A stretch of 64,000 bases of DNA from an uncultured Elusimicrobia bacterium (GCA_964441955.1 CAYTWA010000007.1:71555-135554), one strand, 5' to 3'; positions 26,570 through 44,070 are shown, counted from the first letter of the stretch. Notes: generated by a model from the sequence alone, not told the origin. Numbers and translations are program-made.

Positions 26570-28204
26570 TCAGTAGCCGCTGTAAAGAATAAGCGAACAA
26601 ATGATGAACACTAAAATGGCAAACGTCCAATGAATACCGCGGGTCATGGCATCGCGTTTAAGGGTTTCCACCTGAAGGTCGCGAAGTTCCAGGTAGGGGG
26701 TTTTCTTCCCGCGGAGCCACCCGTGAACGACGGCGTCTTTGTCGTTGAGCTTTGCCAGGTTTGAGACGCCGAAAAGCCCCGCGGCCAAATTCCACCCGGA
26801 GTGGCGATCCAACGGGAGAGCTTTTTCATCAACCCGTAAATGCCACACCATCGAGGCTTTTTCTTTAGCGCCGACGAGTCGCCCTTTAAACTCCTGCAGC
26901 GATCTTTTGGAATAGAGCACCTCGATTTTAGGCATACGCGCTAAGGACCAAGTCCAAACCATCCAAGTGGCGGCATAAAACCATTCGAATTCGTAGGCGG
27001 TCAGCCAATGAAGGAGGAGTGCCCCAACGGGCAGCACGGTAGGTAAAACAAGCAGGGCTCGCTGCTTAAACGGTCGTTTGGGAAGCGATTCCACCATTTG
27101 AGGCAACGCGGGTTTGGGAGGCTCCTGAGGTTTTGGCGTGGGTGTGACTATGGGGGGCGGCACCGGTTTTGGCGCTGGCACTGGTTTTGGTGTTTCGACA
27201 GGCTTAGGAAGTTCCGCGGGGTTAGGTGTTTTTTTCTTGTCGTCATCCCCGCGGATGGGTAGCGGGGATTCAGTGTCTTTAGGCGACGTCTTCGCCGTCG
27301 GTTGGGCGGTTTTTTTAGGTCCGGAAAACAATTGGCTGAAAAAGCCTGGCTTCTTTTGAGCCGTGGAAACAAAAGGTTTGGCTTTGGGTGGCTCAACGGG
27401 CTTTACCGGTGTGGGTGGTGGAGCAGGAATCTCCACGGGTTTTTCAGTTTCAAGCGGTTTAGCGGGCTCGGCTGGAGGAGCGGTTTCTGGTTTGGCTAAT
27501 TCCGCGGGCTTTACAGGTACGGGTGTCGGGTCTGGGATCGGTGTCGATATCGGGAGCGGCGTTGGTTCAGGTGCAGACATCGGCAAAGGCTCCACACTTT
27601 TAACCACCGGCTCTTCTTTTATCTTCGGCTCAATTTTCTTGGGCGTGTCTGAGGGTTTCTTTTCTTCTTTACTGACTCGCTTAACCGCTTTCTCGCTTTC
27701 TTTGGCCGGGGGCATGTTCGCGCCCAAACGGTCCGCGGTTTTTTCGAGCGACTTGGCCATGGACTTCAAAGCTTTGGCCAAGGGATTGGGTTTTATGGGT
27801 TCTACTTCTAAGGTTTCCATGCGCGGTTTGGCCTCATGCGCCGCCAATTCCACTTGTTCGCGAAGGGAACGTTCCAGCGCGCGGTCAAAAACGGCCAAGG
27901 TGCGAAAATCAATCCAAACCCCGCGGTCTGAGGGGCAAAACGTGAAAATGAGCCCGGCCGTTTTCGAGCGGCCTTGCTGCAGCTTGCCGTTGCATTTCGG
28001 GCACGAACGGGCCGTGGCCAACTTGTAGTCGTATGCTTCCTCGAAAGCGGTTTTAAAACGGGCATGGTCATCACTAAAGCCGTCCAGCGTGCTTTGGTCG
28101 GACCAAAGGAAGGCGCAAGACGGGCACTGGTACACCGTGCCATGCGTGGTTTTGCGCGCCTGCAACTCCATCCCATCACAAGTCGGGCATTTCATTGGGG
28201 ACAA
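26570..28204 (-). CDS. Membrane protein with two N-terminal zinc ribbons and a long Pro/Lys/Glu-rich low-complexity linker
   Basis: 'CPTCDG..CPSC' and 'CPKCNG..C' ribbons. About 200 aa of PxxP/PKP repeats, then TM segments and a C-terminal domain. Confidence 0.6.
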   Translation of the reverse strand: MSPMKCPTCDGMELQARKTTHGTVYQCPSCAFLWSDQSTLDGFSDDHARFKTAFEEAYDYKLATARSCPKCNGKLQQGRSKTAGLIFTFCPSDRGVWIDFRTLAVFDRALERSLREQVELAAHEAKPRMETLEVEPIKPNPLAKALKSMAKSLEKTADRLGANMPPAKESEKAVKRVSKEEKKPSDTPKKIEPKIKEEPVVKSVEPLPMSAPEPTPLPISTPIPDPTPVPVKPAELAKPETAPPAEPAKPLETEKPVEIPAPPPTPVKPVEPPKAKPFVSTAQKKPGFFSQLFSGPKKTAQPTAKTSPKDTESPLPIRGDDDKKKTPNPAELPKPVETPKPVPAPKPVPPPIVTPTPKPQEPPKPALPQMVESLPKRPFKQRALLVLPTVLPVGALLLHWLTAYEFEWFYAATWMVWTWSLARMPKIEVLYSKRSLQEFKGRLVGAKEKASMVWHLRVDEKALPLDRHSGWNLAAGLFGVSNLAKLNDKDAVVHGWLRGKKTPYLELRDLQVETLKRDAMTRGIHWTFAILVFIICSLILYSGY

Positions 28205-29570: not shown

Positions 29571-29671
29571 TTGGCATGGTTCCTGGCAGGGTTCTGCTTG
29601 CGACAGTAATTTAGTGCCAAAATCTCATTTGGCAGGGTTATTAAGACTATTTGGCATGGTTTGGCAGGGTT
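29571..29671 (+). repeat. Array of five direct repeats TGGCA(T/G)GGTT (starts 29572, 29584, 29630, 29652, 29662), plus two inverted TGCCAAA half-sites at 29541 and 29614, in the divergent promoter region
   Basis: Read directly in the sequence. The last two copies are tandem at a 10-bp period. Confidence 0.6.
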
Positions 29672-29707
29672 GCGCCGTGGCGTCTTTTTGGATATTATGA
29701 AGCCACC

Positions 29708-30481
29708 ATGTCAGCCTTAGTCTTATCCAACATTTCTAAAATTTACCGCCGGTCTCACCTGGGCCGGACGAAAGAAACCGCGGCCATTCAGAGTTTGTCC
29801 CTCGAGGTGCGCGCGGGGGAAGTGTTTGGGCTGCTCGGCTTAAACGGGTCTGGGAAAACCACGACCATCAAAATGCTTTTGGGGCTTTTGCGGCCTACCC
29901 AGGGAACGATCCAGGTTCTTGGCCGCGCCATGCCCGACCGCCAGGTGCTCGCGCGTGTGGGGTATCTTCCCGAAGCGGCGTATTTATGCAAATGGATGAC
30001 TGGCCGCGAAGCGGTAACGCTTTTTGCCACGCTTTCTGGGATCCCGGCGTCTTCTCGAAAAAAGGCCGTTACCGATATTCTGGAACGTGTGGGAATGACC
30101 GTGGCGGCCGACCGCAAAATTGGCGAATATTCCAAAGGGATGCTGCAGCGTATCGGCATGGCACAAGCACTCGTCCATGACCCCGAACTGTTGATTTTTG
30201 ATGAACCCATCACCGGACTAGATCCTTTGGCGGTCAAGGATATGCGCCAGTTGGTGGCGTGGCTCAAAGCCAAAGGCAAAACCGTTTTCTTTTCCTCGCA
30301 CGATATGTCGGAAGTCGAAAAACTTTGTGACCGCGTCGGCATTTTAGCGGGCGGGCACCTGGCGCTCACCGCCGAACAAAAAGACTGGCGCGACCGCCCC
30401 GGACATTTAGAAGAGCTTTTTACCGCCACCGTTAAACGATCCGATGCGATCGGAATGCTTCAATTCAATGAAGGAGAATAA
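29708..30481 (+). CDS. ABC transporter ATP-binding protein (ABC-2 exporter type)
   Basis: Walker A 'GLNGSGKTT', signature 'YSKGMLQR' and Walker B 'LIFDEP'. Confidence 0.85.
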   Translation: MSALVLSNISKIYRRSHLGRTKETAAIQSLSLEVRAGEVFGLLGLNGSGKTTTIKMLLGLLRPTQGTIQVLGRAMPDRQVLARVGYLPEAAYLCKWMTGREAVTLFATLSGIPASSRKKAVTDILERVGMTVAADRKIGEYSKGMLQRIGMAQALVHDPELLIFDEPITGLDPLAVKDMRQLVAWLKAKGKTVFFSSHDMSEVEKLCDRVGILAGGHLALTAEQKDWRDRPGHLEELFTATVKRSDAIGMLQFNEGE

Positions 30482-32292: not shown

Positions 32293-34302
32293 TCAGCCGT
32301 TTAAAACCGCACGCGCCTGAGCGCGCTCTTGGGCGTCACCCATAATGACCAGGATGTCGTTAGCCAAAAGAACGGTGTCGGCTTTTGGGTTGGCCAGCAG
32401 TTTTCCTCGCCGATAAATGCCCACCACCGTAGCGCCCGTTTTTTCACGCAGGCCAACCGCTCGTAAATGGCGTTCCACGACAGGGCTTTCGGGTTCCAAA
32501 TAAATTTTTTCCATCAGTTCGTCTTCTGAGGTGATTTCATTTTCGTGCCGAGTGAGTGCGGCCAAACGCAACGGTTCGCTGGTGGTTAACCCCACAAGAT
32601 GGTCCAGAAAGCCTTCCAAAACCACATACCCTTTTCGGTAGAGGCCTCGCAGAAGATAGGTCATCGCGGGCAGAATCACAAGCGTCGCCGCCCACAAACG
32701 AGGGTCGGCAAAATCACTTCGTGCCCGTAAAAACCAAGCCAGTGTGAGTAGCCCCATCAACAGTGTTTCCGTCGCCGTGTAGGCCTTGTGAATGGGGAGG
32801 ACGCTCAGGAGGCGCGTGGCGCGCAAACGCACAATGCTTTCCGTGAGTGCCAGAAGCAAGAAGTGGTTGATGTAATATACGACCGCTAAAAATAGCGGCA
32901 CCAAAAGCAAATACGCAGCGCTCCATAAAAGAGCGGGAATAAAGCGTTCTTGATGAAGTACGCCCGCCGCCCGACCCGTAAGCAAATAAACAGCCATCCA
33001 AAGGGCGATATAAAGTCCCAGCCGAAACATATACCGCGACAATATCGTGCCTGTTGGAGAGGGGGCGCGGTTTCTAAACCGCTCTATGCGTGCCAGGTAG
33101 CCGTCTTGAAGATGTTGCAATGGTTTCGGAGTAAGCCGGATGACGATGGCTGAAAGGGCTTCGGCGTGGCGAATAAAAAAGGGTGTGGTAAACGCCGTCA
33201 CGGAAGCCACGGCCACGGCCAAAGGATAAAGAAAATCGCCCGCTTTGGGGCTTGCGAGTGCCAGCGATCCAAAGACAAACGAAAATTCCCCGATTTGGCT
33301 GAGGGTAAACCCCGTTTGGAGCGCCGTCGATACCGAATGCCCAGCCAAAAATGTTCCAGAAGAGACGAACAGGATTTTCCCCGTTATGGTGACGAGTGTG
33401 ACAAGCACGATGGGCCCGGCATACGCGTAGAGCATTTGAGGGTCGAGCAGCATGCCGGCCGAAACAAAAAAGATTGCGGTGAAAAGGTCACGCACAGGCT
33501 GAAACCATGTTTCAATCGGGCCGCATTCTGGGGTGACCCCGACGATCGTGCCGATCAAAAAAGCGCCCAGAGCCACCGAGTAACCCGCCTCGGAGGCGGC
33601 GAGCGCGCCGAGCAAACAAAGGCCTAAACTAAGAACCCCTAACGTTTCCATCGATTTGGTGCGCGCCGCCCACTGGGTCAAGCGCGGGACAAGCGCCAAC
33701 CCTACCACGCCGAACAAAATGACGAAAAAACTCACGCGCAGAAGTGAAGCAATCAAGGTGCTGCCCCCCACGCCCAGGCCACTGATTAAGCCGCTGACCA
33801 CCGTGAGCAGCAAAACGGCGGCCACATCTTCGAGAATTAAAATTCCAAGGGCCGTATCGGAACCGCCGCTGCGGAACAATTTGAGATCCGTTAATACTTT
33901 CACGATCACCGAAGTGCTGCTGATGCACATGATGGCGCCTAGGATGACGCTTTCGGTACCGTTCCATCCAAAGAAGCGGCCTAAAAAATACCCTACGAGC
34001 GCCATGGCCGGAACTTCCAAAAGGGTAGTGATGGCGGCGGATGGCCCTACCCGCCGCAGCCGTGGGAGGCTAAATTCAAACCCCAATGAAAACAGTAAAA
34101 ACACAATGCCGAGGCTTGCCATGGTGTGAATGCTGTGTAAGTCTTTGACAAAGGCAAACGGCGGGGTGTGCGGGCCGATGAGCAAGCCCGCCAGCAGGTA
34201 GCCTAATACCGCGGGTTGGTTCAGTTTTCGAAACAACAAGGTGACGGCGGCGGCGGCCGCCATGACCACTGAAAAGTCTCGTAAAAAAACCGTTTCGGTC
34301 AT
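32293..34302 (-). CDS. Monovalent cation:proton antiporter (CPA2/Kef-type) with C-terminal RCK_C/TrkA-C domain
   Basis: About 12 TM segments and a C-terminal '..HLRAVGLREKTGATVVGIYRRGKLLANPKADTVLLANDILVIMG' RCK_C-like sequence. Real start is MTETVFL. Confidence 0.75.
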   Translation of the reverse strand: MTETVFLRDFSVVMAAAAAVTLLFRKLNQPAVLGYLLAGLLIGPHTPPFAFVKDLHSIHTMASLGIVFLLFSLGFEFSLPRLRRVGPSAAITTLLEVPAMALVGYFLGRFFGWNGTESVILGAIMCISSTSVIVKVLTDLKLFRSGGSDTALGILILEDVAAVLLLTVVSGLISGLGVGGSTLIASLLRVSFFVILFGVVGLALVPRLTQWAARTKSMETLGVLSLGLCLLGALAASEAGYSVALGAFLIGTIVGVTPECGPIETWFQPVRDLFTAIFFVSAGMLLDPQMLYAYAGPIVLVTLVTITGKILFVSSGTFLAGHSVSTALQTGFTLSQIGEFSFVFGSLALASPKAGDFLYPLAVAVASVTAFTTPFFIRHAEALSAIVIRLTPKPLQHLQDGYLARIERFRNRAPSPTGTILSRYMFRLGLYIALWMAVYLLTGRAAGVLHQERFIPALLWSAAYLLLVPLFLAVVYYINHFLLLALTESIVRLRATRLLSVLPIHKAYTATETLLMGLLTLAWFLRARSDFADPRLWAATLVILPAMTYLLRGLYRKGYVVLEGFLDHLVGLTTSEPLRLAALTRHENEITSEDELMEKIYLEPESPVVERHLRAVGLREKTGATVVGIYRRGKLLANPKADTVLLANDILVIMGDAQERAQARAVLNG

Positions 34303-36143
34303 TGGAACCCTAGGAGACGGCCCCCTTGAAACACCGCAAACGATGCCAGGTACGCATAGGCGTTCATATAAAGGAACATCACAAGGGGCACTTTCCATCC
34401 CCCCGTTTCCCTTCGTATGACCGCGAGCGTTGACGAACATTGCATGGCGAAGACAAAAAACACCATCAGCGACACAGCCGCTAAGGGTGAAAGGTCGCTG
34501 CGGATGGCTTGTTGAAGGCTGGCTGTATCGGCGCTTGCCGACACGTGATAAATCGTGGCCAATGAGCTTACCATCACCTCGCGCGCCACTTGAGCGGAGA
34601 GCAAGCCCACGCCGATTTTCCAATTAAAACCCAGCGGTTGGAGGAGCGGTTCCAAGAGATGGCCGATTTTGCCGGCGAAGGAATGCTCGATCCCCTCCGC
34701 GCCGGGATGCTGCGGGAAGGTCGCCAGAAACCACAGCACGATGCTGGCGCCCAGAATGATGGTCCCGGCGCGGCGCAAGAAAACTTTTGCCCTATCCCAC
34801 ATAATAAGGAAAACCGTTTTCGCCATCGGTAAGCGATAGGGGGGAATTTCCAAAAAAAACGGGGTGCGGTCGGATTTTAAAATGGAGCTTTTTAAGATCC
34901 AGGCGGTCATCATGGCCGCGAGAAAACCCATGACATAGAGCCCCAGAAGCGTGGCGGCCCGCAAACCCAAAATGCCGGGGATCACCGGAATGTTCGGGAC
35001 GAAGGCGCTAATGAGCAAGGTGTACACCGGCAGACGCGCGCTGCAGGTCATAAAGGGAGCGATCAATATGGTCGCCAGGCGCTCGCGTTTGTTTTCGATG
35101 GTCCGTGTGGCCATGATGCCAGGGACCGCGCAGGCGTAGGATGAAATGAGCGGAAGAAAAGATTTGCCTTGCAAGCCCACGGAGGACAGGGCGCGGTCCA
35201 TCACCAGCGCGGCGCGCGTTAGATACCCCGATTGTTCGAGCGCGGCGATGAAAAAAAAGACGATGAGAATTTGCGGTAGAAAAATGACAACAGACCCCAC
35301 TCCGGGAACGATGCCCTCGGTAATAAGGCGCGCCCAGAGCGTCGGGGGAAGTATGGACTGCAAGGCTCCAGATGCCCATCCAAAAAACCCATCGATGCCA
35401 TCCATAAGCGGCTGTGCCCATGTAAAAATGGATTGGAACACGACTAAAACCACGGCGGCAAACATGAACGGCCCCCCGATGCGGTGCATTAGGATGTTGT
35501 CTAAACGGTCGGACAAGACAGGCGAGGTTAAATCATTCTTAAGGACTGATCGGGTGATTTGTTTCGCTTGGATCCGGCGTTTAAGAATGTCCGCTTCGGT
35601 GGGCAAGAGAAGCTTTCCCGGACTGTCGTGCTGCGTTTTCTTCCCGTGCCACGCGTCGAGGGTTTCATAGAGAACGTTAAGCCCTGTTCCCTTCGTGGCC
35701 GAAATAGCAATCACCGGCGCATTCAACAGCTTCGATAACAAGCCCCCGTCAATGGCGGAGCCACGCAAAGCCAGCTCATCGGTCATGTTGAGTAAGACAA
35801 CGCAAGGGATGCCCGTTTCTAAAATTTGCAGGGTGAGAAACAAACTTTTTTCCAAACTGGTGCTGTCGATAATGCTTAAGACGCCGTTTGGAATCGGCGT
35901 TTGCGGTTGAAGCCCCAGCAGGACTTGGGCCGCCACGCGTTCCTCTTCGGAATTAGGAGAAAGGCTGTACGTGCCCGGTAAATCAATCAACTGGATGTCG
36001 CGGCCCTTTATTCGGAACACCCCTGTTTTTTGTTCTACGGTAACGCCCGCATAGTTCGCCACTTTTTGGCGAAGTCCCGTAAGGCGGTTAAAGAGCGTTG
36101 TTTTCCCGGAATTAGGGTTGCCAGCCACGGCCAGCGTTATCAT
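34299..36143 (-). CDS. feoB: Ferrous iron transporter FeoB
   Basis: G-domain 'GNPNSGKTTLFNRLTG..DLPGTYSL' and a gate/membrane domain. Confidence 0.9.
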   Translation of the reverse strand: MITLAVAGNPNSGKTTLFNRLTGLRQKVANYAGVTVEQKTGVFRIKGRDIQLIDLPGTYSLSPNSEEERVAAQVLLGLQPQTPIPNGVLSIIDSTSLEKSLFLTLQILETGIPCVVLLNMTDELALRGSAIDGGLLSKLLNAPVIAISATKGTGLNVLYETLDAWHGKKTQHDSPGKLLLPTEADILKRRIQAKQITRSVLKNDLTSPVLSDRLDNILMHRIGGPFMFAAVVLVVFQSIFTWAQPLMDGIDGFFGWASGALQSILPPTLWARLITEGIVPGVGSVVIFLPQILIVFFFIAALEQSGYLTRAALVMDRALSSVGLQGKSFLPLISSYACAVPGIMATRTIENKRERLATILIAPFMTCSARLPVYTLLISAFVPNIPVIPGILGLRAATLLGLYVMGFLAAMMTAWILKSSILKSDRTPFFLEIPPYRLPMAKTVFLIMWDRAKVFLRRAGTIILGASIVLWFLATFPQHPGAEGIEHSFAGKIGHLLEPLLQPLGFNWKIGVGLLSAQVAREVMVSSLATIYHVSASADTASLQQAIRSDLSPLAAVSLMVFFVFAMQCSSTLAVIRRETGGWKVPLVMFLYMNAYAYLASFAVFQGGRLLGFQ

Positions 36144-36373
36144 CGAAGGTGAACGTGCTCGGCATCCGACCGCCGGATCGCCAAACAATACCCCATGACC
36201 TCAATAGCCATAGGTCCGCCCAAGGGGGCTAAGCGCAGCACCTTAACCGGTTCGCCCGGACATAGCCCCAGCTGCATCAGCCGATAAGCGGTTTCCGGAT
36301 GAGACGACAAACGTTCAATGATGCCGGTTTGCCCGGGTTTAAGATGCGTGAGGCGATGAGGCGGTGTAGTCAT
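36140..36373 (-). CDS. feoA: FeoA
   Basis: 77-aa SH3-like FeoA sequence 'LKPGQTGIIERL..GEPVKVLRLAPLGGPMAIEV'. Overlaps the feoB start. Confidence 0.7.
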   Translation of the reverse strand: MTTPPHRLTHLKPGQTGIIERLSSHPETAYRLMQLGLCPGEPVKVLRLAPLGGPMAIEVMGYCLAIRRSDAEHVHLR

Positions 36374-37176
36374 GGTCGATGAATGGTGCCAATGCCTGTG
36401 TGCCGGGCGGTGTTTTGCGGCCACAGGGGAGACATCCAAATGTGAGGGCGTTGGTTTGCCCATTCGACAAAAAAAGCTTCAAGTTGGGGAAATTTAGCTA
36501 CTCGGCGCAGCCCTTCTTCTGGACCCAATACAAAAAGCGCCGTGGACCAGGCGTCGGCTTGTGCTGCGCTTGGCGCGATGACCGTGACGCTTCGCCTGGC
36601 GTTCATGGGTTTGAGGGTTCGAGGGTCTAGAATGTGGCCTCCTTTCTCGAAAGGGGCGCTCGTGCTGATGGACCCGCGGCGTTTCATCCAAAATTCAGGA
36701 AGCTCGTCACGTCCCCAGCCGGGAATCTCGATGACGACAATTTCACTGACGTGGTCCTCCCGGTCCCAAAACAAAAGCTGCCCGCCAAAATCCATTCGAA
36801 ACGAAAAAATATCGGAAAACGCGACGAGGCGCATTTGTGCTTGGTCCAATGCAAAACCCTTCCCAAACGCGCCCAAATCCCATTGTCCCTGAAGTTGGGG
36901 GTTAAACGCACCTTGGGTTTCATCGTGATAATGCCGGGCAAGCTTCAGGGCTTCGCGTGTCGAAGAAGAAAGGTCGGCCTCGGCAAGGAGGCCTTGGTTA
37001 AGTCTATACAAGTCGCTTTCTCCACGAAAAACCGAAAGCCGTTCTTCCCATTGTTGAATCGTATCGAGCGCCACTTCTTTCGCTTTTTCAACGCTTTCCT
37101 GGCAGGTGCCTTGGACCGACATTTGCAGCAAGGTCCCCATGACATATCGAATCCCTTCCGCAACAAAAAAACGCAA
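36370..37176 (-). CDS. apbE: ApbE-family FAD:protein FMN transferase (no signal peptide)
   Basis: 'MGTLLQMSV' ApbE hallmark and overall similarity. Confidence 0.65.
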   Translation of the reverse strand: MRFFVAEGIRYVMGTLLQMSVQGTCQESVEKAKEVALDTIQQWEERLSVFRGESDLYRLNQGLLAEADLSSSTREALKLARHYHDETQGAFNPQLQGQWDLGAFGKGFALDQAQMRLVAFSDIFSFRMDFGGQLLFWDREDHVSEIVVIEIPGWGRDELPEFWMKRRGSISTSAPFEKGGHILDPRTLKPMNARRSVTVIAPSAAQADAWSTALFVLGPEEGLRRVAKFPQLEAFFVEWANQRPHIWMSPLWPQNTARHTGIGTIHRP

Positions 37177-37177
37177 C

Positions 37178-37684
37178 TTAGGCCCGTCCCCGTGACCCTT
37201 TCTGGGCAGGGGCCGGCCGCTGCAAATACATCACGAGGGCTGTAAGCAAAAACCCAATCATTCCTTGGAGGGTTAAAAATGAAAGAATTTTCAAAACCGC
37301 GAACCCTGGATGTGCAAACCGCACCAACCACCCTGCGGCTTCTAACAAAAGAGCTGACCCAAAAGACGTGCTTATAAAGAAGGCTTTAAACGCGTTTGAA
37401 AAGGGGGCAAAAATCAGTAAATGGGTCAGCAGCAGCATGACTAAAGCCATCATCGGCAGGTGCATATGGGTGACTTCTAGCATGGCGTGTGCGGAGCGGG
37501 GCGGAAGGAATCTTGCCTCAGAGCCGTTGTAATAGTCCACAACACTTTGAGCGGTAAGGCCCATTTTCGAAAAATAAAAATAGAAGTTGGTGATCCAAAA
37601 ACCGGCCAACAGCAGGCATGTCCACATCAGCGTCAAGCGCATCATGGGGTGGTTTTGAAACCCGCCTTTTTCCAGGTATTTCAT
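37178..37684 (-). CDS. 4-TM membrane protein of unknown function
   Basis: Hydrophobicity pattern. Coupled to its neighbours with overlaps of 0-4 nt. Confidence 0.45.
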   Translation of the reverse strand: MKYLEKGGFQNHPMMRLTLMWTCLLLAGFWITNFYFYFSKMGLTAQSVVDYYNGSEARFLPPRSAHAMLEVTHMHLPMMALVMLLLTHLLIFAPFSNAFKAFFISTSFGSALLLEAAGWLVRFAHPGFAVLKILSFLTLQGMIGFLLTALVMYLQRPAPAQKGSRGRA

Positions 37685-38229
37685 TTCGTTTTTATAATCT
37701 CCTGATGCAGGGCCAACGTTTGCCTCAGCCCATCTGCCACGGCCTGACAGGTTAGTGTTGCGCCCGTCACATTTGGGATGTCGCGGCGCAAACGGACCGG
37801 TTCGGTGTGTTTGCGCCCGGTCAGTAAATCAAACCAGGTGCGTCGGGGCAAATAATCCTCAGGCTCAAAAAACGAGAGTACCTCGACGCGGGACACCGTT
37901 CCATCCGGGCGAACGACAATCATGAGGGTCATCGGCATGGTCCGCACTAGACGGGTTTCAAAAAAAGCGGTGCCTAGAATTTTTCCGTCGCGCGTTCCGA
38001 TGTAATACGAATAGACAAGTGATTCCAGGCGAGTTTTAGATTTCGATTGAATTGATTCCGCCTGGTCGGGGGTCAGAAACGCGGTTCGGCGGTCAATGGA
38101 GGCTCCGGCCTCAAATACTTTGGCCAGAGCCTCCTCTTGGCTCATGAAAAGCCTGGCGTGAGCTCCCTGCGTGGCGGGCACGACGAGCGCAGGAACGCTT
38201 AGAAGCCATGTCAATCGCTCCCATCCCAT
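37681..38229 (-). CDS. Secreted FMN-binding domain protein (FMN_bind; flavinylation motif TGATLT)
   Basis: Signal peptide. 'DIPNVTGATLTCQAV' matches the [ST]GAT[ST] covalent FMN attachment motif of NqrC/RnfG-type domains. Confidence 0.6.
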   Translation of the reverse strand: MGWERLTWLLSVPALVVPATQGAHARLFMSQEEALAKVFEAGASIDRRTAFLTPDQAESIQSKSKTRLESLVYSYYIGTRDGKILGTAFFETRLVRTMPMTLMIVVRPDGTVSRVEVLSFFEPEDYLPRRTWFDLLTGRKHTEPVRLRRDIPNVTGATLTCQAVADGLRQTLALHQEIIKTK

Positions 38230-39561
38230 TTAGAAGATATACCCCAGCGCGAAGTTGACTTGATTGACCCCGGTTTCGGCCTGATTGTCGAGGTCTTGCC
38301 ATTCGCCTTTTACGACCACTTGGGGGATGGGCTTATAGGTCAAACCAACGGTGTACTCCGTACGGCTGTTGGCGGCACTTTTCGTATAGCCCCCGGGAAC
38401 GCGCTGCTGCGTATCGTAGCGTTCATAACGAAAGAAGGGCGCGAGGTAATGATTGGTATTCATGAGGGAAAACACATTGTAAGCGACCTGGGCATAGCCC
38501 CCGAAAAGGCGTTCGCCGACCGAGCAGGTGCCGCTCGTGCAAGGGGTTGCCATGCCCCGGTTGATGAGCGCGGCGTCACCGATGGTTCCTTGAGCATAAA
38601 GACCGCGCAGTTCAACTCCGCTTCGTTCCAAGGACGCATGCGCCTCCCAAAGCGTGATGGGCGCATCGACTTCTTGGTTGTTGACCGTGGCATTCTGCCC
38701 GGCTTGGCCTGTATATAAGGAAGCGCCTATCTGGGTGTTGGGTAAACCGACATAGTCAAGCCGTCCCACCCAGGCCACATCTTCTGCAAAACTACGAGCG
38801 CCTTTGGAGCGGCCGTTTCGAATACCGGAAGAAGCCGAGAAACCGCTGACGCCAGTTCCGTTAGTTGCCTGGAGGCCGGCCAGCACGTACGACCGGTAAC
38901 TAAAAGGCCCCACATCGCCAAATACGCCAACGCCGTTTTCGCGCCAGGTGGAGGGAATAATGGATTGTTCCACAGAGGGCCGCACAGCGCCGTGGTAGGC
39001 GGTCGGCTCATGGAGCTCATTGGTAAACCCCATAGGGACTAGCATCATGCCGGCGCGCAGCGCGGCGGGTTTAGTCAATATAAAATCAAGATAGGCAAAT
39101 TCTATGCTGACTTCTCCACGCGGCGTCTGGGAGGTGCTGGCGTTGTCCGTGGAGGCATGTTCATATTCAATTTCCGAATTGAAAAGAATTTTGTCGTTGA
39201 ATTTAAAGCCCGCATAAAGAACGGCGCGTAGAAAGTCCAAATCCCTTCGCGATCCCGAGGCGGTTCCGTTGTCGCGCTCATTGTCGAATTCGCGCAGCAC
39301 CATTTCGCCGTAACCGCCAAGCGACACGCCGCGGTTCACATGGTAAACCTTCGAGGCGGCGGGCGAAAGCCCAAATTTGGGCTCATAAACGGCCGGTGTC
39401 TTTTCGGAAGCGGCGCCCAGCTTTGATTTTTCAAGTTCCTGGGTTAAGGCATCCACCTTTCGTTCCATTTCGATTTTCCACTGCGCGTCGGCCGTAGGTT
39501 CCTCCGCATGGGCCCATCCCAAAACCCCCGTCAACATCCCCAGCCTCATCCATCGTTTCAC
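38230..39561 (-). CDS. Outer-membrane porin (OprP/OprO-like beta-barrel)
   Basis: Signal peptide 'MKRWMRLGMLTGVLGWAHA', coiled N-terminal segment, beta-strand pattern and C-terminal 'ALGYIF'. Confidence 0.55.
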   Translation of the reverse strand: MKRWMRLGMLTGVLGWAHAEEPTADAQWKIEMERKVDALTQELEKSKLGAASEKTPAVYEPKFGLSPAASKVYHVNRGVSLGGYGEMVLREFDNERDNGTASGSRRDLDFLRAVLYAGFKFNDKILFNSEIEYEHASTDNASTSQTPRGEVSIEFAYLDFILTKPAALRAGMMLVPMGFTNELHEPTAYHGAVRPSVEQSIIPSTWRENGVGVFGDVGPFSYRSYVLAGLQATNGTGVSGFSASSGIRNGRSKGARSFAEDVAWVGRLDYVGLPNTQIGASLYTGQAGQNATVNNQEVDAPITLWEAHASLERSGVELRGLYAQGTIGDAALINRGMATPCTSGTCSVGERLFGGYAQVAYNVFSLMNTNHYLAPFFRYERYDTQQRVPGGYTKSAANSRTEYTVGLTYKPIPQVVVKGEWQDLDNQAETGVNQVNFALGYIF

Positions 39562-39962
39562 GGTTTGACTCCTTGGTAGTAAAGTGGCATCTCATGTGCT
39601 CTTGGCCTTGCTAAGCTTAAGCATAATAGTTATATTGAAACCATGTTTCAATAGAAACAGATCGCAAGACGCCATTCTCGACGTAGTCAGGGTCATTTAT
39701 TAACAATAATGTCTATTTAGAAAAGTTTGAATCGGCTTCTGATATTCGCTGCGGATGCGATCGGCTTCTAGCTCGCCGTGTGACGGAAGGCTATGAACTT
39801 AAATGCAGCCGTTGCAAGGCCGTCTGGTTTTTACCGGGAGATTTGGCTGAACGGCCCCTACTGCTGCAAAGCGCCCCTAAAAAGACATCGTGAGGAGAAC
39901 GAATCCGGCGCGGCGCCCCGGAGTTGCCTTAATACCCCCCCGAGGCGCCGCTGGCGTCTTGA

Positions 39963-40262
39963 TTATTTCGTTACTTTCTTTTCCATCATTTTGTCGAACT
40001 TAACCATTTGTTCCGGCGTTAAAAGCGCGCGTATTTGGTCCCGCGCCTCTTTTTCGGCCGCGTCGATCTTTTCATACTTTTGGGCTTTAATAGAATGGAC
40101 TTGGGTTTTTTGATCGGGCGTTAATTTTAAGTCAGCCGCGAACCTATCAAGTTTTTTACCGCGTTCCTCCGCCGTCATGGTGTCTTCATAAGCGTGGGTG
40201 AGATGCGGAACAGCGGCGCCCAGCAGCATTGCGGCCGCAAGGCCTGTGGTGAAGTTTTTCAT
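39963..40262 (-). CDS. Periplasmic LTXXQ-motif protein (Spy/CpxP/ZraP family)
   Basis: Signal peptide and two LTxxQ motifs ('LKLTPDQK', 'LLTPEQM'). Confidence 0.6.
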   Translation of the reverse strand: MKNFTTGLAAAMLLGAAVPHLTHAYEDTMTAEERGKKLDRFAADLKLTPDQKTQVHSIKAQKYEKIDAAEKEARDQIRALLTPEQMVKFDKMMEKKVTK

Positions 40263-40719: not shown

Positions 40720-42336
40720 ATGGCCTTAAAAAAGAAACTCCCTGTCCAAAAAGAAGCCCCGGCGCTAAAGCCCCTTAAAAAAGAAGCCGCGACCGAAGCC
40801 GACCGCCAAGCCGCTAAGCAGCGGGATATCTCTGTCTCCGAATTTTTTCTAAAAAATCGTCATCTGTTGGGGTTTGATAACGCCAAAAAAGCGCTGCTCA
40901 CGACAATTAAGGAAGCGGTGGATAACAGTTTGGATGCCTGCGAAGAAGCCAAAATCCTTCCGGAAATTTATGTCGAGGTCAAAGGACTGGACCAGGCGGA
41001 TCGTTTTGTCGTGATCGTGGAAGACAATGGCCCCGGCATTGTAAAGGAACAAATCCCCAGCATCTTTGCCAAACTGCTCTACGGGTCTAAATTTCATGCC
41101 ATGAAGCAGGCGCGCGGCCAACAGGGGATCGGCATTTCAGCGGCTGGCATGTATGGCCAACTGACTACAGGCGTGCCGACTCGCATCACCTCTCGCATCT
41201 CGGCCAAGAAGCCGGCGCATTATTTTGAACTCCAAATTGATACGGCTAAAAACAAGCCCACGATCGTCAAAGACGAAGTGATTCACTGGAAAAAACCGCA
41301 TGGCACGAAGGTGCAAATCGAACTAGAAGCAAAATACCAAAAGGGCCCGCGCTCGGTGGATGATTACATCCGCCAAACGGCGCTCGCCAACCCGCACGCG
41401 ACGATTCACTTTAAAAGCCCCGAAGGCGACAAGGCGGACTACAAGGCGGCGACTAAAAAGTTGCCTGTTGCGTCGAAAGAAATCAAGCCGCATCCGCATG
41501 GGGTGGAGCTTGGCATCTTAATGAAAATGCTCAAATCCACCAACGCCCGAAAAGTGGGAGCATTTTTATCGAAAGATTTTGCCCGAGTTTCGCCGCGTGT
41601 GGCGCATGCGATCTTAAAAGCGGCGGGGATTGAGGCGGATGCCAAACCAGCCGAGATCGCCCATCAAGAAGCCGACAAACTTCACCGCGCCATAAGCGCC
41701 ACGAAATTGATGAACCCCCCGACCAATTGCCTCTCTCCTATCGGTGAAGCGGCGATGCTTGCTGGGATTAAGGAAAACGTCGAAGCCGACTTTTACACCG
41801 CTTTGACGCGGCCGCCTTCGGTGTACCGCGGCAACCCGTTTCAAATTGAAGTGGCCCTTGCTTATGGCGGTAAGATGCCGCCCGAGGAACTGGCCCAGCT
41901 GCTGCGGTTTGCCAACCGCGTGCCGCTTCTCTATCAGCAAAGTGCGTGCGCCACCACCAAAAGCGTTTTGCAGATGGGTTGGAAAAACTATGGCGTCAAC
42001 CAATCGAAAGGGGCGCTGCCTACGGCCCCGCTTATGATAGCGGTTCACATGGCGAGCGTTTGGGTGCCCTTTACCTCGGAATCCAAGGAAGCGATCGCTT
42101 CCTACGAGGAAATCATTAAAGAAATCAAATTGGCGCTTCAAGAATGCGGACGCCGGCTGGATGCCTATTTGCGCCGCGGCGCGCGCGAAGCGGAGGCGAA
42201 GCGCAAACGCGACTACATTAAGTCCTACCTGCCGCACATCGGCATCGGCTTGCGTGAGATATTAGGCTTCAAGGAAAAAGAGCAGAAGAAGGTTTTGAAT
42301 TTGCTCATCGACATCCTGGAAAAGGAGCGCGCCTAA
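40720..42336 (+). CDS. top6B: DNA topoisomerase VI subunit B (GHKL/Bergerat ATPase)
   Basis: N-box 'EAVDNSLDA', G-boxes 'DNGPGI' and 'GQQGIGISAA', H2TH and transducer regions. Confidence 0.85.
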   Translation: MALKKKLPVQKEAPALKPLKKEAATEADRQAAKQRDISVSEFFLKNRHLLGFDNAKKALLTTIKEAVDNSLDACEEAKILPEIYVEVKGLDQADRFVVIVEDNGPGIVKEQIPSIFAKLLYGSKFHAMKQARGQQGIGISAAGMYGQLTTGVPTRITSRISAKKPAHYFELQIDTAKNKPTIVKDEVIHWKKPHGTKVQIELEAKYQKGPRSVDDYIRQTALANPHATIHFKSPEGDKADYKAATKKLPVASKEIKPHPHGVELGILMKMLKSTNARKVGAFLSKDFARVSPRVAHAILKAAGIEADAKPAEIAHQEADKLHRAISATKLMNPPTNCLSPIGEAAMLAGIKENVEADFYTALTRPPSVYRGNPFQIEVALAYGGKMPPEELAQLLRFANRVPLLYQQSACATTKSVLQMGWKNYGVNQSKGALPTAPLMIAVHMASVWVPFTSESKEAIASYEEIIKEIKLALQECGRRLDAYLRRGAREAEAKRKRDYIKSYLPHIGIGLREILGFKEKEQKKVLNLLIDILEKERA

Positions 42337-43427
42337 TGGACCGATCCACCGAAAAGTTAATTCACCAGGACGCCGAAAAGCTGTACCAGGAAATTTTGAA
42401 GAAAAAAATACCGATGCTGGACTTCCCCATGCGCAGCCTTGAGAACGTCACCTACGACAAGAAGAAGGGCTATTTTGAAATCGGGGATCGCGTGGTGGAA
42501 CGCACGCTGTCCTACAACACGATTAAAACCTTCGCGCAAACGGTTCGCATGATGGCGCTCTCGCATGAGATCGTCAAAAAAGACGATATGGCCACCAAAC
42601 GGGAGGCGTATTACGTCTCTAAAAATTGGGGCGAAGCGCGTTTTACCGAACAGCCGGAGTCCGACACGATCATGGACGACATCGAAGCTCATTTTCGTTT
42701 GAACCGGGAGAAGCTGGGTTTTATTCCGGAGGAAAAAGGCGGCGACATCGTGGGGAAACTCACCGTCATCGACAAAGACCCCAACACCGGCAAAGAGATC
42801 CGCATCGACTGTACGGGTTTTGGCTCCGGCGCTTATTCCATTCCAACCGATTGCGAGGGGCTTAAGTTTGAAACCAAAGCCAAATACATTTTGGCCATCG
42901 AAACGGCCGGCATGTTTCAGCGGCTTGTGAAGCATAACTTCTACACCACGGATAACTGCATTTTAATTTCCATGGGCGGAGTGCCGACGCGTGCATGCCG
43001 CCGGTTTATTCGCCGCTTAGCCGATGAACACAAGCTTCCGGTGTACGCCTTCGTGGACGGCGATCCGTACGGCATGACGAACATTTACCGAACGCTGAAG
43101 GTGGGGTCGGGCAATAACGCGCATTTAAACACCTTCTTTTGCGTTCCACAGGCGAGTTACCTAGGCGTAACCCCACAGGACATCATCGACTTTAAACTAA
43201 AAGACGCCACACACCCTCTCGCCGAAGTCGACATCAAGCGCGCCAAAGACGCCTTAAAAAGCGATCCCTTCATCAAGGCGCACAAACCGTGGCGAGACGC
43301 CATCGAACAGATGCTCGAAATGGGTGTGCGCGTCGAACAGCAGGCCTTCGCCAAACACGGCCTTAACCACGTGATCGAAAAATATCTGCCCATCAAACTG
43401 AAAAAGCCCTCCAAATTTTTGCCCTGA
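42336..43427 (+). CDS. top6A: DNA topoisomerase VI subunit A (Spo11-like; WHD + Toprim)
   Basis: 'KREAYYVSKNW' carries the catalytic Tyr. Toprim 'LAIETAGMF..FVDGDPYG'. Start overlaps the top6B stop. Confidence 0.85.
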   Translation: MDRSTEKLIHQDAEKLYQEILKKKIPMLDFPMRSLENVTYDKKKGYFEIGDRVVERTLSYNTIKTFAQTVRMMALSHEIVKKDDMATKREAYYVSKNWGEARFTEQPESDTIMDDIEAHFRLNREKLGFIPEEKGGDIVGKLTVIDKDPNTGKEIRIDCTGFGSGAYSIPTDCEGLKFETKAKYILAIETAGMFQRLVKHNFYTTDNCILISMGGVPTRACRRFIRRLADEHKLPVYAFVDGDPYGMTNIYRTLKVGSGNNAHLNTFFCVPQASYLGVTPQDIIDFKLKDATHPLAEVDIKRAKDALKSDPFIKAHKPWRDAIEQMLEMGVRVEQQAFAKHGLNHVIEKYLPIKLKKPSKFLP

Positions 43428-43500: not shown

Positions 43501-44070
43501 ATGTCTATGTTAAACCTTAAGTCTAAGACCGATGCGATTTCGATGCTGATGGAGGATCACGAAAAAGTCAAAGGCCTCTTTGATCAGTTTGAAAAAGCAG
43601 ACAACCACTCGCAAAAAATGAAGTGCGTTGAAAAAGCCATCGAAGAATTAAAGGTACACGCCGCCATCGAAGAAGAAATTTTTTACCCAGCCGTGCGCCA
43701 GAAATTAGACGACCCTGAAGGCATCATGGAAGAGGCTGATGAAGAGCACCATGTCGCCAAAGTGCTCATCGCCGAACTCGACATGATGACCGGCAAAGAA
43801 GAACACTGGGAAGCAAAGTTCACCGTTTTAGCGGAAAATATCCGCCACCATATTAAGGAGGAAGAAGGCGAGATGCTGCCCGAGGCACGGAAAACGCCGA
43901 TTGATTTCGAAGCCTTAGGCGCTCAAATGATGGCGCGGAAAAAAGAACTTCAGGAAAAGGGCGTCCCGCCGGATGCCGAAGCCAAAATGGTGAAAAAAAG
44001 CGGCTTACGCGGAGACAGCCCTGCAAAACACGCGCAGAAAAAAGTGACTGTGCCCCTTCAGTCCAACTAA
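43501..44070 (+). CDS. Hemerythrin HHE cation-binding domain protein
   Basis: 'MEDHEKV..LKVHAAIEEEIFYP..EEHHVAK..HHIKEEEGEM' His/Glu ligand pattern. Confidence 0.75.
   Translation: MSMLNLKSKTDAISMLMEDHEKVKGLFDQFEKADNHSQKMKCVEKAIEELKVHAAIEEEIFYPAVRQKLDDPEGIMEEADEEHHVAKVLIAELDMMTGKEEHWEAKFTVLAENIRHHIKEEEGEMLPEARKTPIDFEALGAQMMARKKELQEKGVPPDAEAKMVKKSGLRGDSPAKHAQKKVTVPLQSN

Follow-up and report, generated by a model that had tools for sequence, protein, structure and literature searches.

A conserved module of porin, flavoprotein, membrane protein and ApbE as a candidate iron-acquisition front end in an Elusimicrobia feoAB operon

A 64,000-nucleotide (nt) stretch of DNA from an uncultured Elusimicrobia bacterium (GCA_964441955.1, CAYTWA010000007.1:71555-135554; this whole stretch is referred to below as the window) contains a seven-gene operon that encodes, in order, an outer-membrane porin, a secreted FMN_bind protein, a small inner-membrane protein with four transmembrane helices (the 4-TM protein), an ApbE-family transferase, FeoA, FeoB and a cation:proton antiporter. 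Comparison with related loci shows that the conserved unit consists of the porin, FMN_bind, 4-TM and ApbE genes, to which individual lineages have added further genes. On the strength of gene context, sequence motifs, gene fusions and structural models, we propose that the operon combines a conserved four-gene iron-acquisition front end with a ferrous-iron importer, an interpretation to which we give about an even chance of being correct.

The four-gene module and its iron-gene neighbours

The operon and its genes are the following (aa, amino acids; FMN, flavin mononucleotide; FAD, flavin adenine dinucleotide).

32293-39561, minus strand: operon of seven genes (open reading frames and domain searches)
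38230-39561, minus strand: outer-membrane porin, 443 aa (marginal Porin_O_P match; AlphaFold2 model)
37681-38229, minus strand: secreted FMN_bind protein, 182 aa (PF04205, 28.9 bits, cutoff 22)
37756-37767, minus strand: codons T155-G156-A157-T158 of the FMN_bind protein, predicted ApbE flavinylation motif (read from the sequence)
37178-37684, minus strand: 4-TM inner-membrane protein, 168 aa, Pfam PF27139 (Aq_1264_TM; precomputed Pfam match)
36370-37176, minus strand: ApbE-family FAD:protein FMN transferase, 268 aa, TTG start (PF02424, 119.9 bits, cutoff 25.6)
36140-36373, minus strand: FeoA, 77 aa (PF04023, 73.8 bits)
34299-36143, minus strand: FeoB ferrous-iron transporter, 614 aa (TIGR00437, 481 bits, cutoff 315.65)
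32293-34302, minus strand: CPA2 cation:proton antiporter with a C-terminal RCK_C (TrkA_C) domain, 669 aa (Na_H_Exchanger, 167.5 bits; TrkA_C, 51.6 bits)

All reading frames, family assignments and junctions hold, in agreement with a preliminary description of the window in which the seven minus-strand genes abut or overlap. As read from the sequence, the porin and FMN_bind genes meet at TAAATG with a gap of 0 nt, the FMN_bind and 4-TM genes share an ATGA overlap, the 4-TM and ApbE genes are separated by 1 nt (TAAgTTG), and the ApbE/FeoA, FeoA/FeoB and FeoB/CPA2 junctions are all ATGA. Moreover, the starts from the 4-TM gene to the CPA2 gene are identical in a gene call made independently on an ENA contig of the same organism, a short contig that ends at the CPA2 gene. 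These junctions show the seven genes as a single predicted transcription unit; translational coupling across them we can only infer, because four-base overlaps are the commonest gene junction in compact operons.

Relatives were collected by a scan of one genome per species, in which the best 80 of 137 relatives were kept. The open reading frames (ORFs) of each locus were translated and searched with the seven window proteins, and neighbouring genes were taken from a self-trained codon-usage gene call that replaced naive ORF clustering, given the antisense ORFs of high-GC loci. Among the 56 species-representative 4-TM loci with adequate flanking DNA, the porin and the FMN_bind protein are each encoded in 55 and ApbE in 49, and all four module genes are found together in 47; FeoB is present in seven loci and the CPA2 gene in one. 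The occurrence of the genes in these loci therefore reduces the seven-gene system to a four-gene module with lineage-specific additions: the preliminary description of a seven-gene Feo-linked system stands with respect to the co-conservation of the four genes and falls with respect to FeoB and the antiporter.

The module loci span Elusimicrobiota, Acidobacteriota, Eisenbacteria, Bacteroidota/Ignavibacteria and one metagenome-assembled genome of Deltaproteobacteria. The commonest gene order is ApbE, porin, FMN_bind, 4-TM; in the window it is porin, FMN_bind, 4-TM, ApbE. The succession of FMN_bind and 4-TM genes is still present at 27% identity (locus L088), and on a distant branch (L085) the whole order is kept as porin, FMN_bind and a single polypeptide in which the 4-TM protein is fused to ApbE.

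With respect to function, the module is accompanied by iron genes of several kinds. Among 28 Acidobacteriota loci, profile searches identified Fur in 14, FTR1 in 13 and TonB-dependent receptors in nine; DtxR-type repressors accompany five of nine Eisenbacteria loci, and the 13 Bacteroidota/Ignavibacteria loci include six with FeoB, three with FTR1 and three with Fur. FeoAB comes straight after ApbE in the window and in two relatives (L003 and L093). In L089 and L091, according to independent gene calls with precomputed Pfam matches, Fur is the first gene before ApbE, porin, FMN_bind and 4-TM, and FTR1 is divergent. The order in L020 is Fur, ApbE, porin, FMN_bind, 4-TM and a cytochrome c–FTR1 fusion:

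L020 10479-12734, plus strand: cytochrome c–FTR1 fusion, 751 aa, overlapping the end of the 4-TM gene, in the same operon with Fur as first gene

Judging from typical copy numbers, Fur, DtxR, FTR1 and Feo would each be expected in about 1% of random 20-kb segments. That different phyla attach different iron genes to the same module supports a role in iron assimilation, and the link between iron and the flavinylation genes that was originally drawn from feoAB is thus backed by the independent occurrence of Fur, DtxR, FTR1, FeoAB and TonB-receptor neighbours across phyla. No Fur, DtxR, FTR1 or TonB receptor gene was found elsewhere in the 64-kb window.

The module proteins

The FMN_bind protein consists of a single domain without a lipobox and is predicted to be exported by the Sec pathway. 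Its signal peptide, judged by inspection, comprises residues 1-24 (TQGAHA/RLF, the slash marking cleavage), and the orthologues keep both the signal peptide and the cleavage context AxA/[KR]LFM. The public annotation of this gene (P0121, 154 aa) begins at Met29 and has no signal peptide; this start is probably mis-called, because the conserved signal peptide and cleavage context are thereby lost. Residues 155-160 form the motif TGATLT, which had been singled out as the ApbE target in the secreted 182-aa protein. In an alignment against PDB sequences, T155-G-A-T158 coincides with the TGST flavinylation site of RnfG (9eri_G), the match itself being very weak (E = 0.15), and 69 of the 73 full-length orthologues carry an [STA]G[AS][ST] motif. 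In the canonical motif, D-x-x-[ST]-G-A-[ST], an Asp lies six residues before the modified Thr; the window protein has Pro at this position, and a change of the Asp to Ala is reported to have only minor effects (PMC12052999). T158 is the predicted FMN-bearing residue, and the pairing of ApbE with an exported FMN_bind substrate that was suggested from the window sequence agrees with the RnfG alignment, the conserved motif and the export signal.

The ApbE-family protein matches the Ftp/ApbE structures 4xdt and 4xgw (E = 3.5e-13). Its motifs DLGAFGKG, STSAP, GHILDP and ADAWSTA align with the catalytic, Mg2+-binding and FAD-binding segments of Ftp and E. coli ApbE so that, by alignment, the catalytic motifs (DLGAxGKG, TS, H-I-x-DP, DAxST) appear to be retained, the His of H-I-x-DP being the general base. 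As initially noted, this protein has no export signal: the N-terminus MRFFVAEGIRYVMGT contains no hydrophobic segment, signal peptide or lipobox, features that are usual in extracytosolic ApbE proteins without being diagnostic of the family. No hidden upstream start exists, the frame continuing for 18 start-less codons to a stop, and on this ground a concealed signal peptide or a frameshifted fusion was rejected; a fusion to the C-terminus of the 4-TM protein would likewise leave ApbE in the cytoplasm, there being no fifth helix. The signal-less form occurs throughout the clade of the window (the window, L003, L004, L005, L093 and L094), in which apbE directly follows the 4-TM gene and its product begins a few residues ahead of a conserved MGT motif. 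Most other loci encode an ApbE with a Sec signal peptide or, in Bacteroidota/Ignavibacteria, with a Tat-like signal (RRxFLR). About 3 kb from its module, L094 has a second flavinylation cluster, of a type described previously (PMC8238504):

L094 12885-15738, minus strand: DUF4266, DUF3570, ApbE and thioredoxin-like genes

The ApbE of this cluster also lacks a signal peptide, which suggests that the loss of the signal characterises the lineage and does not stem from faulty annotation. A ZIP transporter gene (1205-1954) is found in L094 as well.

Three explanations of the signal-less ApbE can be considered. The linear motif might be flavinylated in the cytoplasm before Sec export, a possibility suggested by the fact that both extracytosolic clusters of L094 have a signal-less ApbE and by the ability of ApbE to accept a 7-residue tag; cytosolic ApbEs are known as well (PMC12052999). 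Alternatively, ApbE could follow an export route that is not recognised, or a different ApbE could be encoded elsewhere in the genome. The 64-kb window contains no second ApbE, and a metagenome scan with the window ApbE returned a single irrelevant fragment.

The 4-TM protein belongs to PF27139, a family precomputed on an identical database protein (P0001) and on all 120 homologues among the matches listed; the Pfam copy with which the operon proteins were scanned lacks the PF27139 model and gave no match for this protein. Homologues are 57-79% identical across phyla, with near-invariant E70, H73, H75, H88, W119, R122 and K132. The AlphaFold2 model is a four-helix bundle with a predicted local distance difference test score (pLDDT) of 85. 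A structure search with this model yielded no informative neighbour, and a permissive Pfam scan of 60 family members yielded scattered chance-level matches and no consistent family. No paper was found in a literature search for Aq_1264. Both termini are predicted to be cytoplasmic on the basis of the positive-inside rule and of natural C-terminal fusions. These include a fusion to PilZ (P0246), a fusion to a DtxR-type metal-binding domain and a FeoA-like domain (P0249), and four proteins (P0253, P0255, P0270 and P0299) in which a charged linker and then a hydrophobic signal-anchor connect the 4-TM domain to ApbE. The latter architecture places ApbE in the periplasm and ties the 4-TM protein functionally to ApbE. 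Stand-alone 4-TM genes also exist (L087), and a single 712-aa gene call (P0487) joins ApbE and the porin.

Further information comes from twelve proteins with tandem 4-TM repeats. In all of these, repeat 1 keeps H73 and has lost H75 and H88, and repeat 2 keeps H75 and H88, with H73 usually lost. This complementary loss of histidines points to a site at a dimer interface: on the simplest reading of the sequences, the single-domain proteins would be dimers with two equivalent interface sites, each composed of H73 and the H75/H88 pair of the partner, and the tandem forms would keep only one such site. The near-invariance of His 73, 75 and 88, together with their complementary retention in the tandems, may hint at a b-type membrane cytochrome, in which paired transmembrane His residues would hold the haem.

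The porin has a signal peptide ending AHA/EE, an N-terminal helix at approximately residues 24-47 and a 16-strand barrel. Its match to Porin_O_P (PF07396) is marginal (23.9 bits, cutoff 20.9) and covers only residues 100-179. The AlphaFold2 model (pLDDT 83.6) shows 16 long strands and the N-terminal helix in a general-porin fold, and the top Foldseek matches are the general 16-strand porins OmpU, OmpC, OmpF and OmpM1. Identity across phyla is 50-80%, an unusually high conservation for a β-barrel protein. The invariant residues include N128, E130, E132, E134 and E154 and, in a loop, N181, E182, H184, E185, R194, E198, W206 and R207, and those on the lumen side are mostly acidic or His (E130, E132, E134, E154, E182, H184 and E185). 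Polar residues on strand 3 (N128, E130, E132 and E134) occupy every second position, with hydrophobic residues between them, and should, for this reason, face the lumen. Taken with E150, E154 and the loop residues N181, E182, H184, E185, H190, R194 and E198, the E130/E132/E134 series suggests, from sequence and model, a pore selective for cations or metals and not, as in OprP, for anions; the phosphate-selective OprO/OprP porins of PF07396 are characterised by an Arg/Lys ladder that binds anions. A role as an MtrB-like sheath for the flavoprotein was considered and appears unlikely, the model being that of an ordinary 16-strand porin with a constriction loop.

A possible path of electrons and iron

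We propose the following mechanism. ApbE would attach FMN to T158 of the flavoprotein. The 4-TM protein, as a dimer that brings H73 of one protomer together with H75 and H88 of the other, would be the membrane partner of the flavoprotein and would relay electrons to it from the quinol pool by way of either a bound haem b or a site for quinol. The reduced flavoprotein could then reduce Fe(III) let in by the presumably cation-selective porin, or keep periplasmic iron in the ferrous state, and Fe(II) would be imported by the permease attached in the given lineage, namely FeoAB in the window and FTR1 in Acidobacteriota. Expression is probably repressed via a palindrome that overlaps the promoter (see below).

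Several observations weigh against this mechanism. No more than 37 of 81 loci have a recognisable iron gene within approximately 10 kb. Thioredoxins resembling DsbA, TlpA or SCO1 are the more frequent neighbours in Elusimicrobia, and cupredoxins are encoded in some loci, which leaves room for copper or thiol redox chemistry. ApbE of the window's clade has no export signal although its substrate is exported. No similarity of the 4-TM protein to any known cytochrome or quinol-binding family is detectable, and its three conserved histidines differ from the four-His, two-haem pattern of MsrQ, PepSY and DUF4405. Finally, free cations such as Fe2+ would pass preferentially through a pore lined with acidic residues, which weakens the need for a reductase.

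A bolder version of the proposal would combine the porin with its acidic ladder, the flavinylated protein and a PF27139 dimer that represents a new, minimal class of membrane redox protein, with haem b or quinol bound between the protomers, into a self-contained, envelope-spanning and TonB-independent pathway of reductive iron uptake, with cytoplasmic, pre-Sec flavinylation of the unfolded precursor in the clade of the window; in this full form we consider it doubtful.

Foremost among the competing explanations, and itself rather unlikely, is that the 4-TM protein functions, in the form of a small dimer, as a channel, permease or sensor for metal ions and not as an electron carrier. In that case Fe2+ would be bound by the mid-membrane His and by the ExxHxH motif, which lies where TM2 reaches the periplasm; transport would run through the porin and the 4-TM protein, and the flavoprotein, supplied with electrons from elsewhere, would only condition the redox state of the metal. 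The invariant E70, H73, H75 and H88, with Met nearby, are indeed typical metal ligands; the fusions to DtxR-type and FeoA-like domains and to PilZ suggest signalling or metal sensing; and many loci have no FeoB or FTR1 nearby, so that the module might import the metal itself. Nevertheless, H75 and H88 lie 13 residues apart on one helix, too far for one shared ion, and the dedicated Fe2+ permeases FeoAB and FTR1, which have been joined to the module repeatedly, would be redundant. Moreover, the coupling of the 4-TM gene is tightest with the flavoprotein gene, whose last 4 nt are shared with the 4-TM start in 52 of 72 loci, and with ApbE through fusions, a pattern that fits a redox partnership better, and a channel would leave the flavoprotein without an electron source.

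Next in rank, and improbable in our estimation, is the view that the module is a general periplasmic redox device acting on Cu(II), thiols or peroxide, or in respiratory or extracellular electron transfer, and that its adjacency to feoAB is opportunistic. The 44 of 81 loci without a recognisable iron gene in reach fit this view, as does the prevalence of thioredoxin-like genes over iron genes in Elusimicrobia loci; cupredoxin-like proteins recur, and a CusF-domain protein is encoded nearby in L003. Against this stands the fact that Fur, DtxR, FTR1 and FeoAB have each been recruited beside the module, in different phyla and in many cases within one operon with it, as with Fur as first gene, FTR1 overlapping the 4-TM gene (L020) and FeoA overlapping ApbE (the window). 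Furthermore, FTR1/P19 iron systems are known to be accompanied by cupredoxins and thioredoxin-like proteins (PMC8238504), and a 16-strand barrel is too small to sheathe a redox protein as MtrB does.

Small dimeric 4-TM transporters exist, for example those of the SMR family. The 4-TM protein might accordingly export FAD or another flavin to the periplasm for ApbE, like the FmnA/RibU-type transporter of Listeria or the MATE transporter of Proteobacteria, which would make the module a maturation kit with its flavoprotein; the natural 4-TM–signal-anchor–ApbE fusions favour such a function and the delivery of FAD to periplasmic ApbE is an unresolved problem (PMC12052999), but we hold this to be quite improbable, since in the window's clade, where ApbE is presumably cytoplasmic and FAD abundant, the 4-TM protein is kept with every invariant residue, and since it adjoins FMN_bind in loci without apbE nearby (Chitinophagales and several Eisenbacteria loci).

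To place the proposed reductive mechanism among known systems, assimilatory iron reduction by ApbE-flavinylated proteins has been put forward before (Méheust et al., 2021; PMC8238504), with PepSY-like, MsrQ-like, DsbD/DUF3570 and NQR/RNF-like systems accompanied by VIT1, and P19–FTR1 clusters with FMN_bind, as examples, and with Fur control reported for some of the systems. Those clusters resemble the window operon in that apbE, an exported FMN_bind protein and a ferrous-iron transporter are grouped and extracytosolic Fe(III) reduction is proposed. They differ in three respects: the membrane partner in the window is PF27139, outside the five published transmembrane classes; the core of the window module includes a dedicated, highly conserved porin, and the word 'porin' is absent from PMC8238504; and the transporter is FeoAB, which appears in that paper only through a cited reference. 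The Pfam accessions of FeoB_N, FeoA and Porin_O_P are absent from the supplementary files of PMC8238504 that were searched, and none of the seven operon proteins matches the NapH-like, MsrQ-like, PepSY-like, DsbD, NQR/RNF-like or DUF4405 membrane families. In the literature searched, no description was found of a PF27139 partner combined with a dedicated conserved porin and interchangeable Feo and FTR1 back ends. Hence the claim that the system is undescribed is justified for the particular module of the window and does not extend to flavinylation-linked assimilatory iron reduction as such, which is already in print.

The flavinylation-associated cytochromes DUF4405 and FezC (Huang et al., 2024; PMC11334425), like PepSY-like and MsrQ-like proteins, are small multi-pass proteins encoded beside apbE with transmembrane His as their most conserved residues. 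The haem sites of FezC, a ferrosome protein, are proposed to form by homodimerisation, and the tandem pattern of the 4-TM protein points likewise to a site between two protomers. The 4-TM protein, which has four helices and three conserved His as opposed to six helices and four central His, shows no detectable similarity to these families in sequence or fold. The NqrC/RnfG subunits share with the window flavoprotein the FMN_bind fold family and the Thr of [ST]GA[ST] that is flavinylated by ApbE; they carry an N-terminal membrane anchor, whereas the window protein has a cleavable signal peptide and no other Nqr/Rnf subunit is encoded with it.

The extracellular electron transfer (EET) locus of Listeria monocytogenes was the model invoked in the preliminary description. 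It likewise comprises an ApbE-type transferase, an exported FMN_bind flavoprotein and small membrane proteins, with Fe(III) as a possible acceptor. Beyond ApbE and the FMN_bind protein the comparison breaks down: neither Ndh2, EetA/EetB, DmkA/B nor a two-domain PplA lipoprotein is present among the seven operon proteins and the ten flanking proteins scanned. In addition, the envelope served by the operon is diderm and has a porin of its own, and the context of the module (Fur, Feo, FTR1) is assimilatory whereas that of the Listeria locus is respiratory.

FsrB of Bradyrhizobium japonicum is a haem protein. It functions as an inner-membrane ferric reductase together with FeoAB (PMC10760861), and in the OmpC–Feo ferrous route of E. 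coli a porin provides the path of Fe2+ through the outer membrane (PMC7315122). The overall logic of these two cases, that is, crossing of the outer membrane, periplasmic reduction or maintenance of ferrous iron, and entry via FeoAB, is the same as that proposed for the window; FsrB is unrelated to the window proteins and OmpC, a general porin, is encoded apart from feo, in contrast to the window, which encodes a covalent-flavoprotein candidate and a porin together.

The passage of iron across the diderm outer membrane and the supply of ferrous iron to FeoB or FTR1 are poorly understood beyond a few model Proteobacteria, and the module is widespread in phyla known largely from metagenome-assembled genomes, namely Acidobacteriota, Elusimicrobiota, Eisenbacteria and Bacteroidota/Ignavibacteria. 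If the proposed mechanism is correct, a function would be assigned to PF27139, a conserved uncharacterised Pfam family, which would become the sixth kind of membrane partner in electron transfer by ApbE-flavinylated proteins; the porin family would possibly be specialised for a metal cation; and the module could serve as a metagenomic marker for the reductive uptake of iron. That ApbE has lost its export signal in the window's clade, next to substrates that are exported, raises a testable question as to the place and timing of flavinylation.

Lineage-specific genes, the promoter region and flanking DNA

Of the lineage-specific additions in the window, FeoA has a start on which the ATGA overlap and the independent gene call agree, and FeoB has all three of the FeoB_N, Gate and FeoB_C domains. 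The antiporter can be named only as a CPA2 transporter with an RCK_C domain, its scores lying far below all equivalog cutoffs (KefB, 113.7 against 804; KefC, 100.6 against 752; YbaL, 132.7 against 700; MagA, 132.4 against 700); the last of these comparisons leaves a MagA-like function in iron transport unsupported. The CPA2 gene adjoins feoB in the window, lies one gene away in L093 and two genes away in L003, is absent from L094, and is found near feoB in no locus other than the first three. It is thus a lineage-specific passenger and, within the window's clade, a loose neighbour, which together with its presence in a single one of the 56 loci gives no support to the earlier suggestion that a Kef-type antiporter balances charge or pH for the system. 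Residues 622-625 of the CPA2 protein, in its cytoplasmic RCK_C domain, read TGAT (EKTGATVVG) and formally fit [ST]GA[ST]; this probably merely reflects the sequence pattern of RCK_C.

The region upstream of the porin gene contains the following features.

39623-39651, minus strand: promoter-like site, -35 TTGAAA, 17-nt spacer, -10 TATTAT (recognised by consensus match only)
39634-39652, strand not assigned: perfect palindrome ATTGAAAC-CAT-GTTTCAAT, overlapping the -35 hexamer, with 12-nt arms when extended to 39630-39656
39963-40262, minus strand: gene of an LTXXQ / Metal_resist (Spy/CpxP/ZraP-like) periplasmic protein, directly upstream of the operon

The promoter-like site lies approximately 60 nt upstream of the porin start and was the top minus-strand match of a consensus scan (10/12); the sequence block that contains it is also kept upstream of the porin gene in L003, a 79%-identical relative. 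An exact copy of the palindrome occurs only once in the 64 kb. Non-coding copies of the form TATTGAAAC-N3-GTTTCAATA lie immediately upstream of the module in L003 (7998) and L014 (6703), and a further such copy, in L004 (638), deviates at a single position. It is plausible that the palindrome is a candidate operator for a metal-responsive repressor. By eye it does not resemble the classical Fur box of E. coli, and no regulator gene for it was identified in the 64-kb window.

The palindrome was also considered as a general signature of the module and rejected, as its non-coding copies are confined to the window, L003, L014 and L004. Loose matches in Elusimicrobia loci fall mostly within the first apbE codons, which encode MK(L/F)NLNKK, and accordingly represent coding sequence, not operators. 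The coding DNA of these signal peptides of Elusimicrobia-type ApbE (TTGAAAnnnAATCTCAA) mimics the palindrome and gives rise to false operator matches, for example in L012 (7326), L067 (7332), L076 (7320), L020 (6972) and others. Within the CPA2 gene of the window (33498-33516, plus strand), GCTGAAACCATGTTTCAAT matches the palindrome at 17 of 19 positions and shares its CAT spacer; L003 yielded no equivalent, and this copy could be due to chance or could be an internal regulatory site.

A GC-rich hairpin (39910-39951) separates the operon from the upstream LTXXQ gene, and the gene downstream of the operon is convergent. Beyond the CPA2 gene, a protein with a Zn_ribbon_TFIIB domain (26570-28204, minus strand) and an ABC ATPase (29651-30481, plus strand) are encoded in the window; both are also found in L093 (15948-18133), and the wider neighbourhood is therefore syntenic in the clade. 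Topoisomerase VI is an enzyme chiefly of archaea and eukaryotes; on the other side of the operon, a B/A pair of topoisomerase VI genes (40720-42336 and 42336-43427, plus strand) is present in an otherwise bacterial context that best matches Elusimicrobia, and is followed by a hemerythrin gene (43501-44070).

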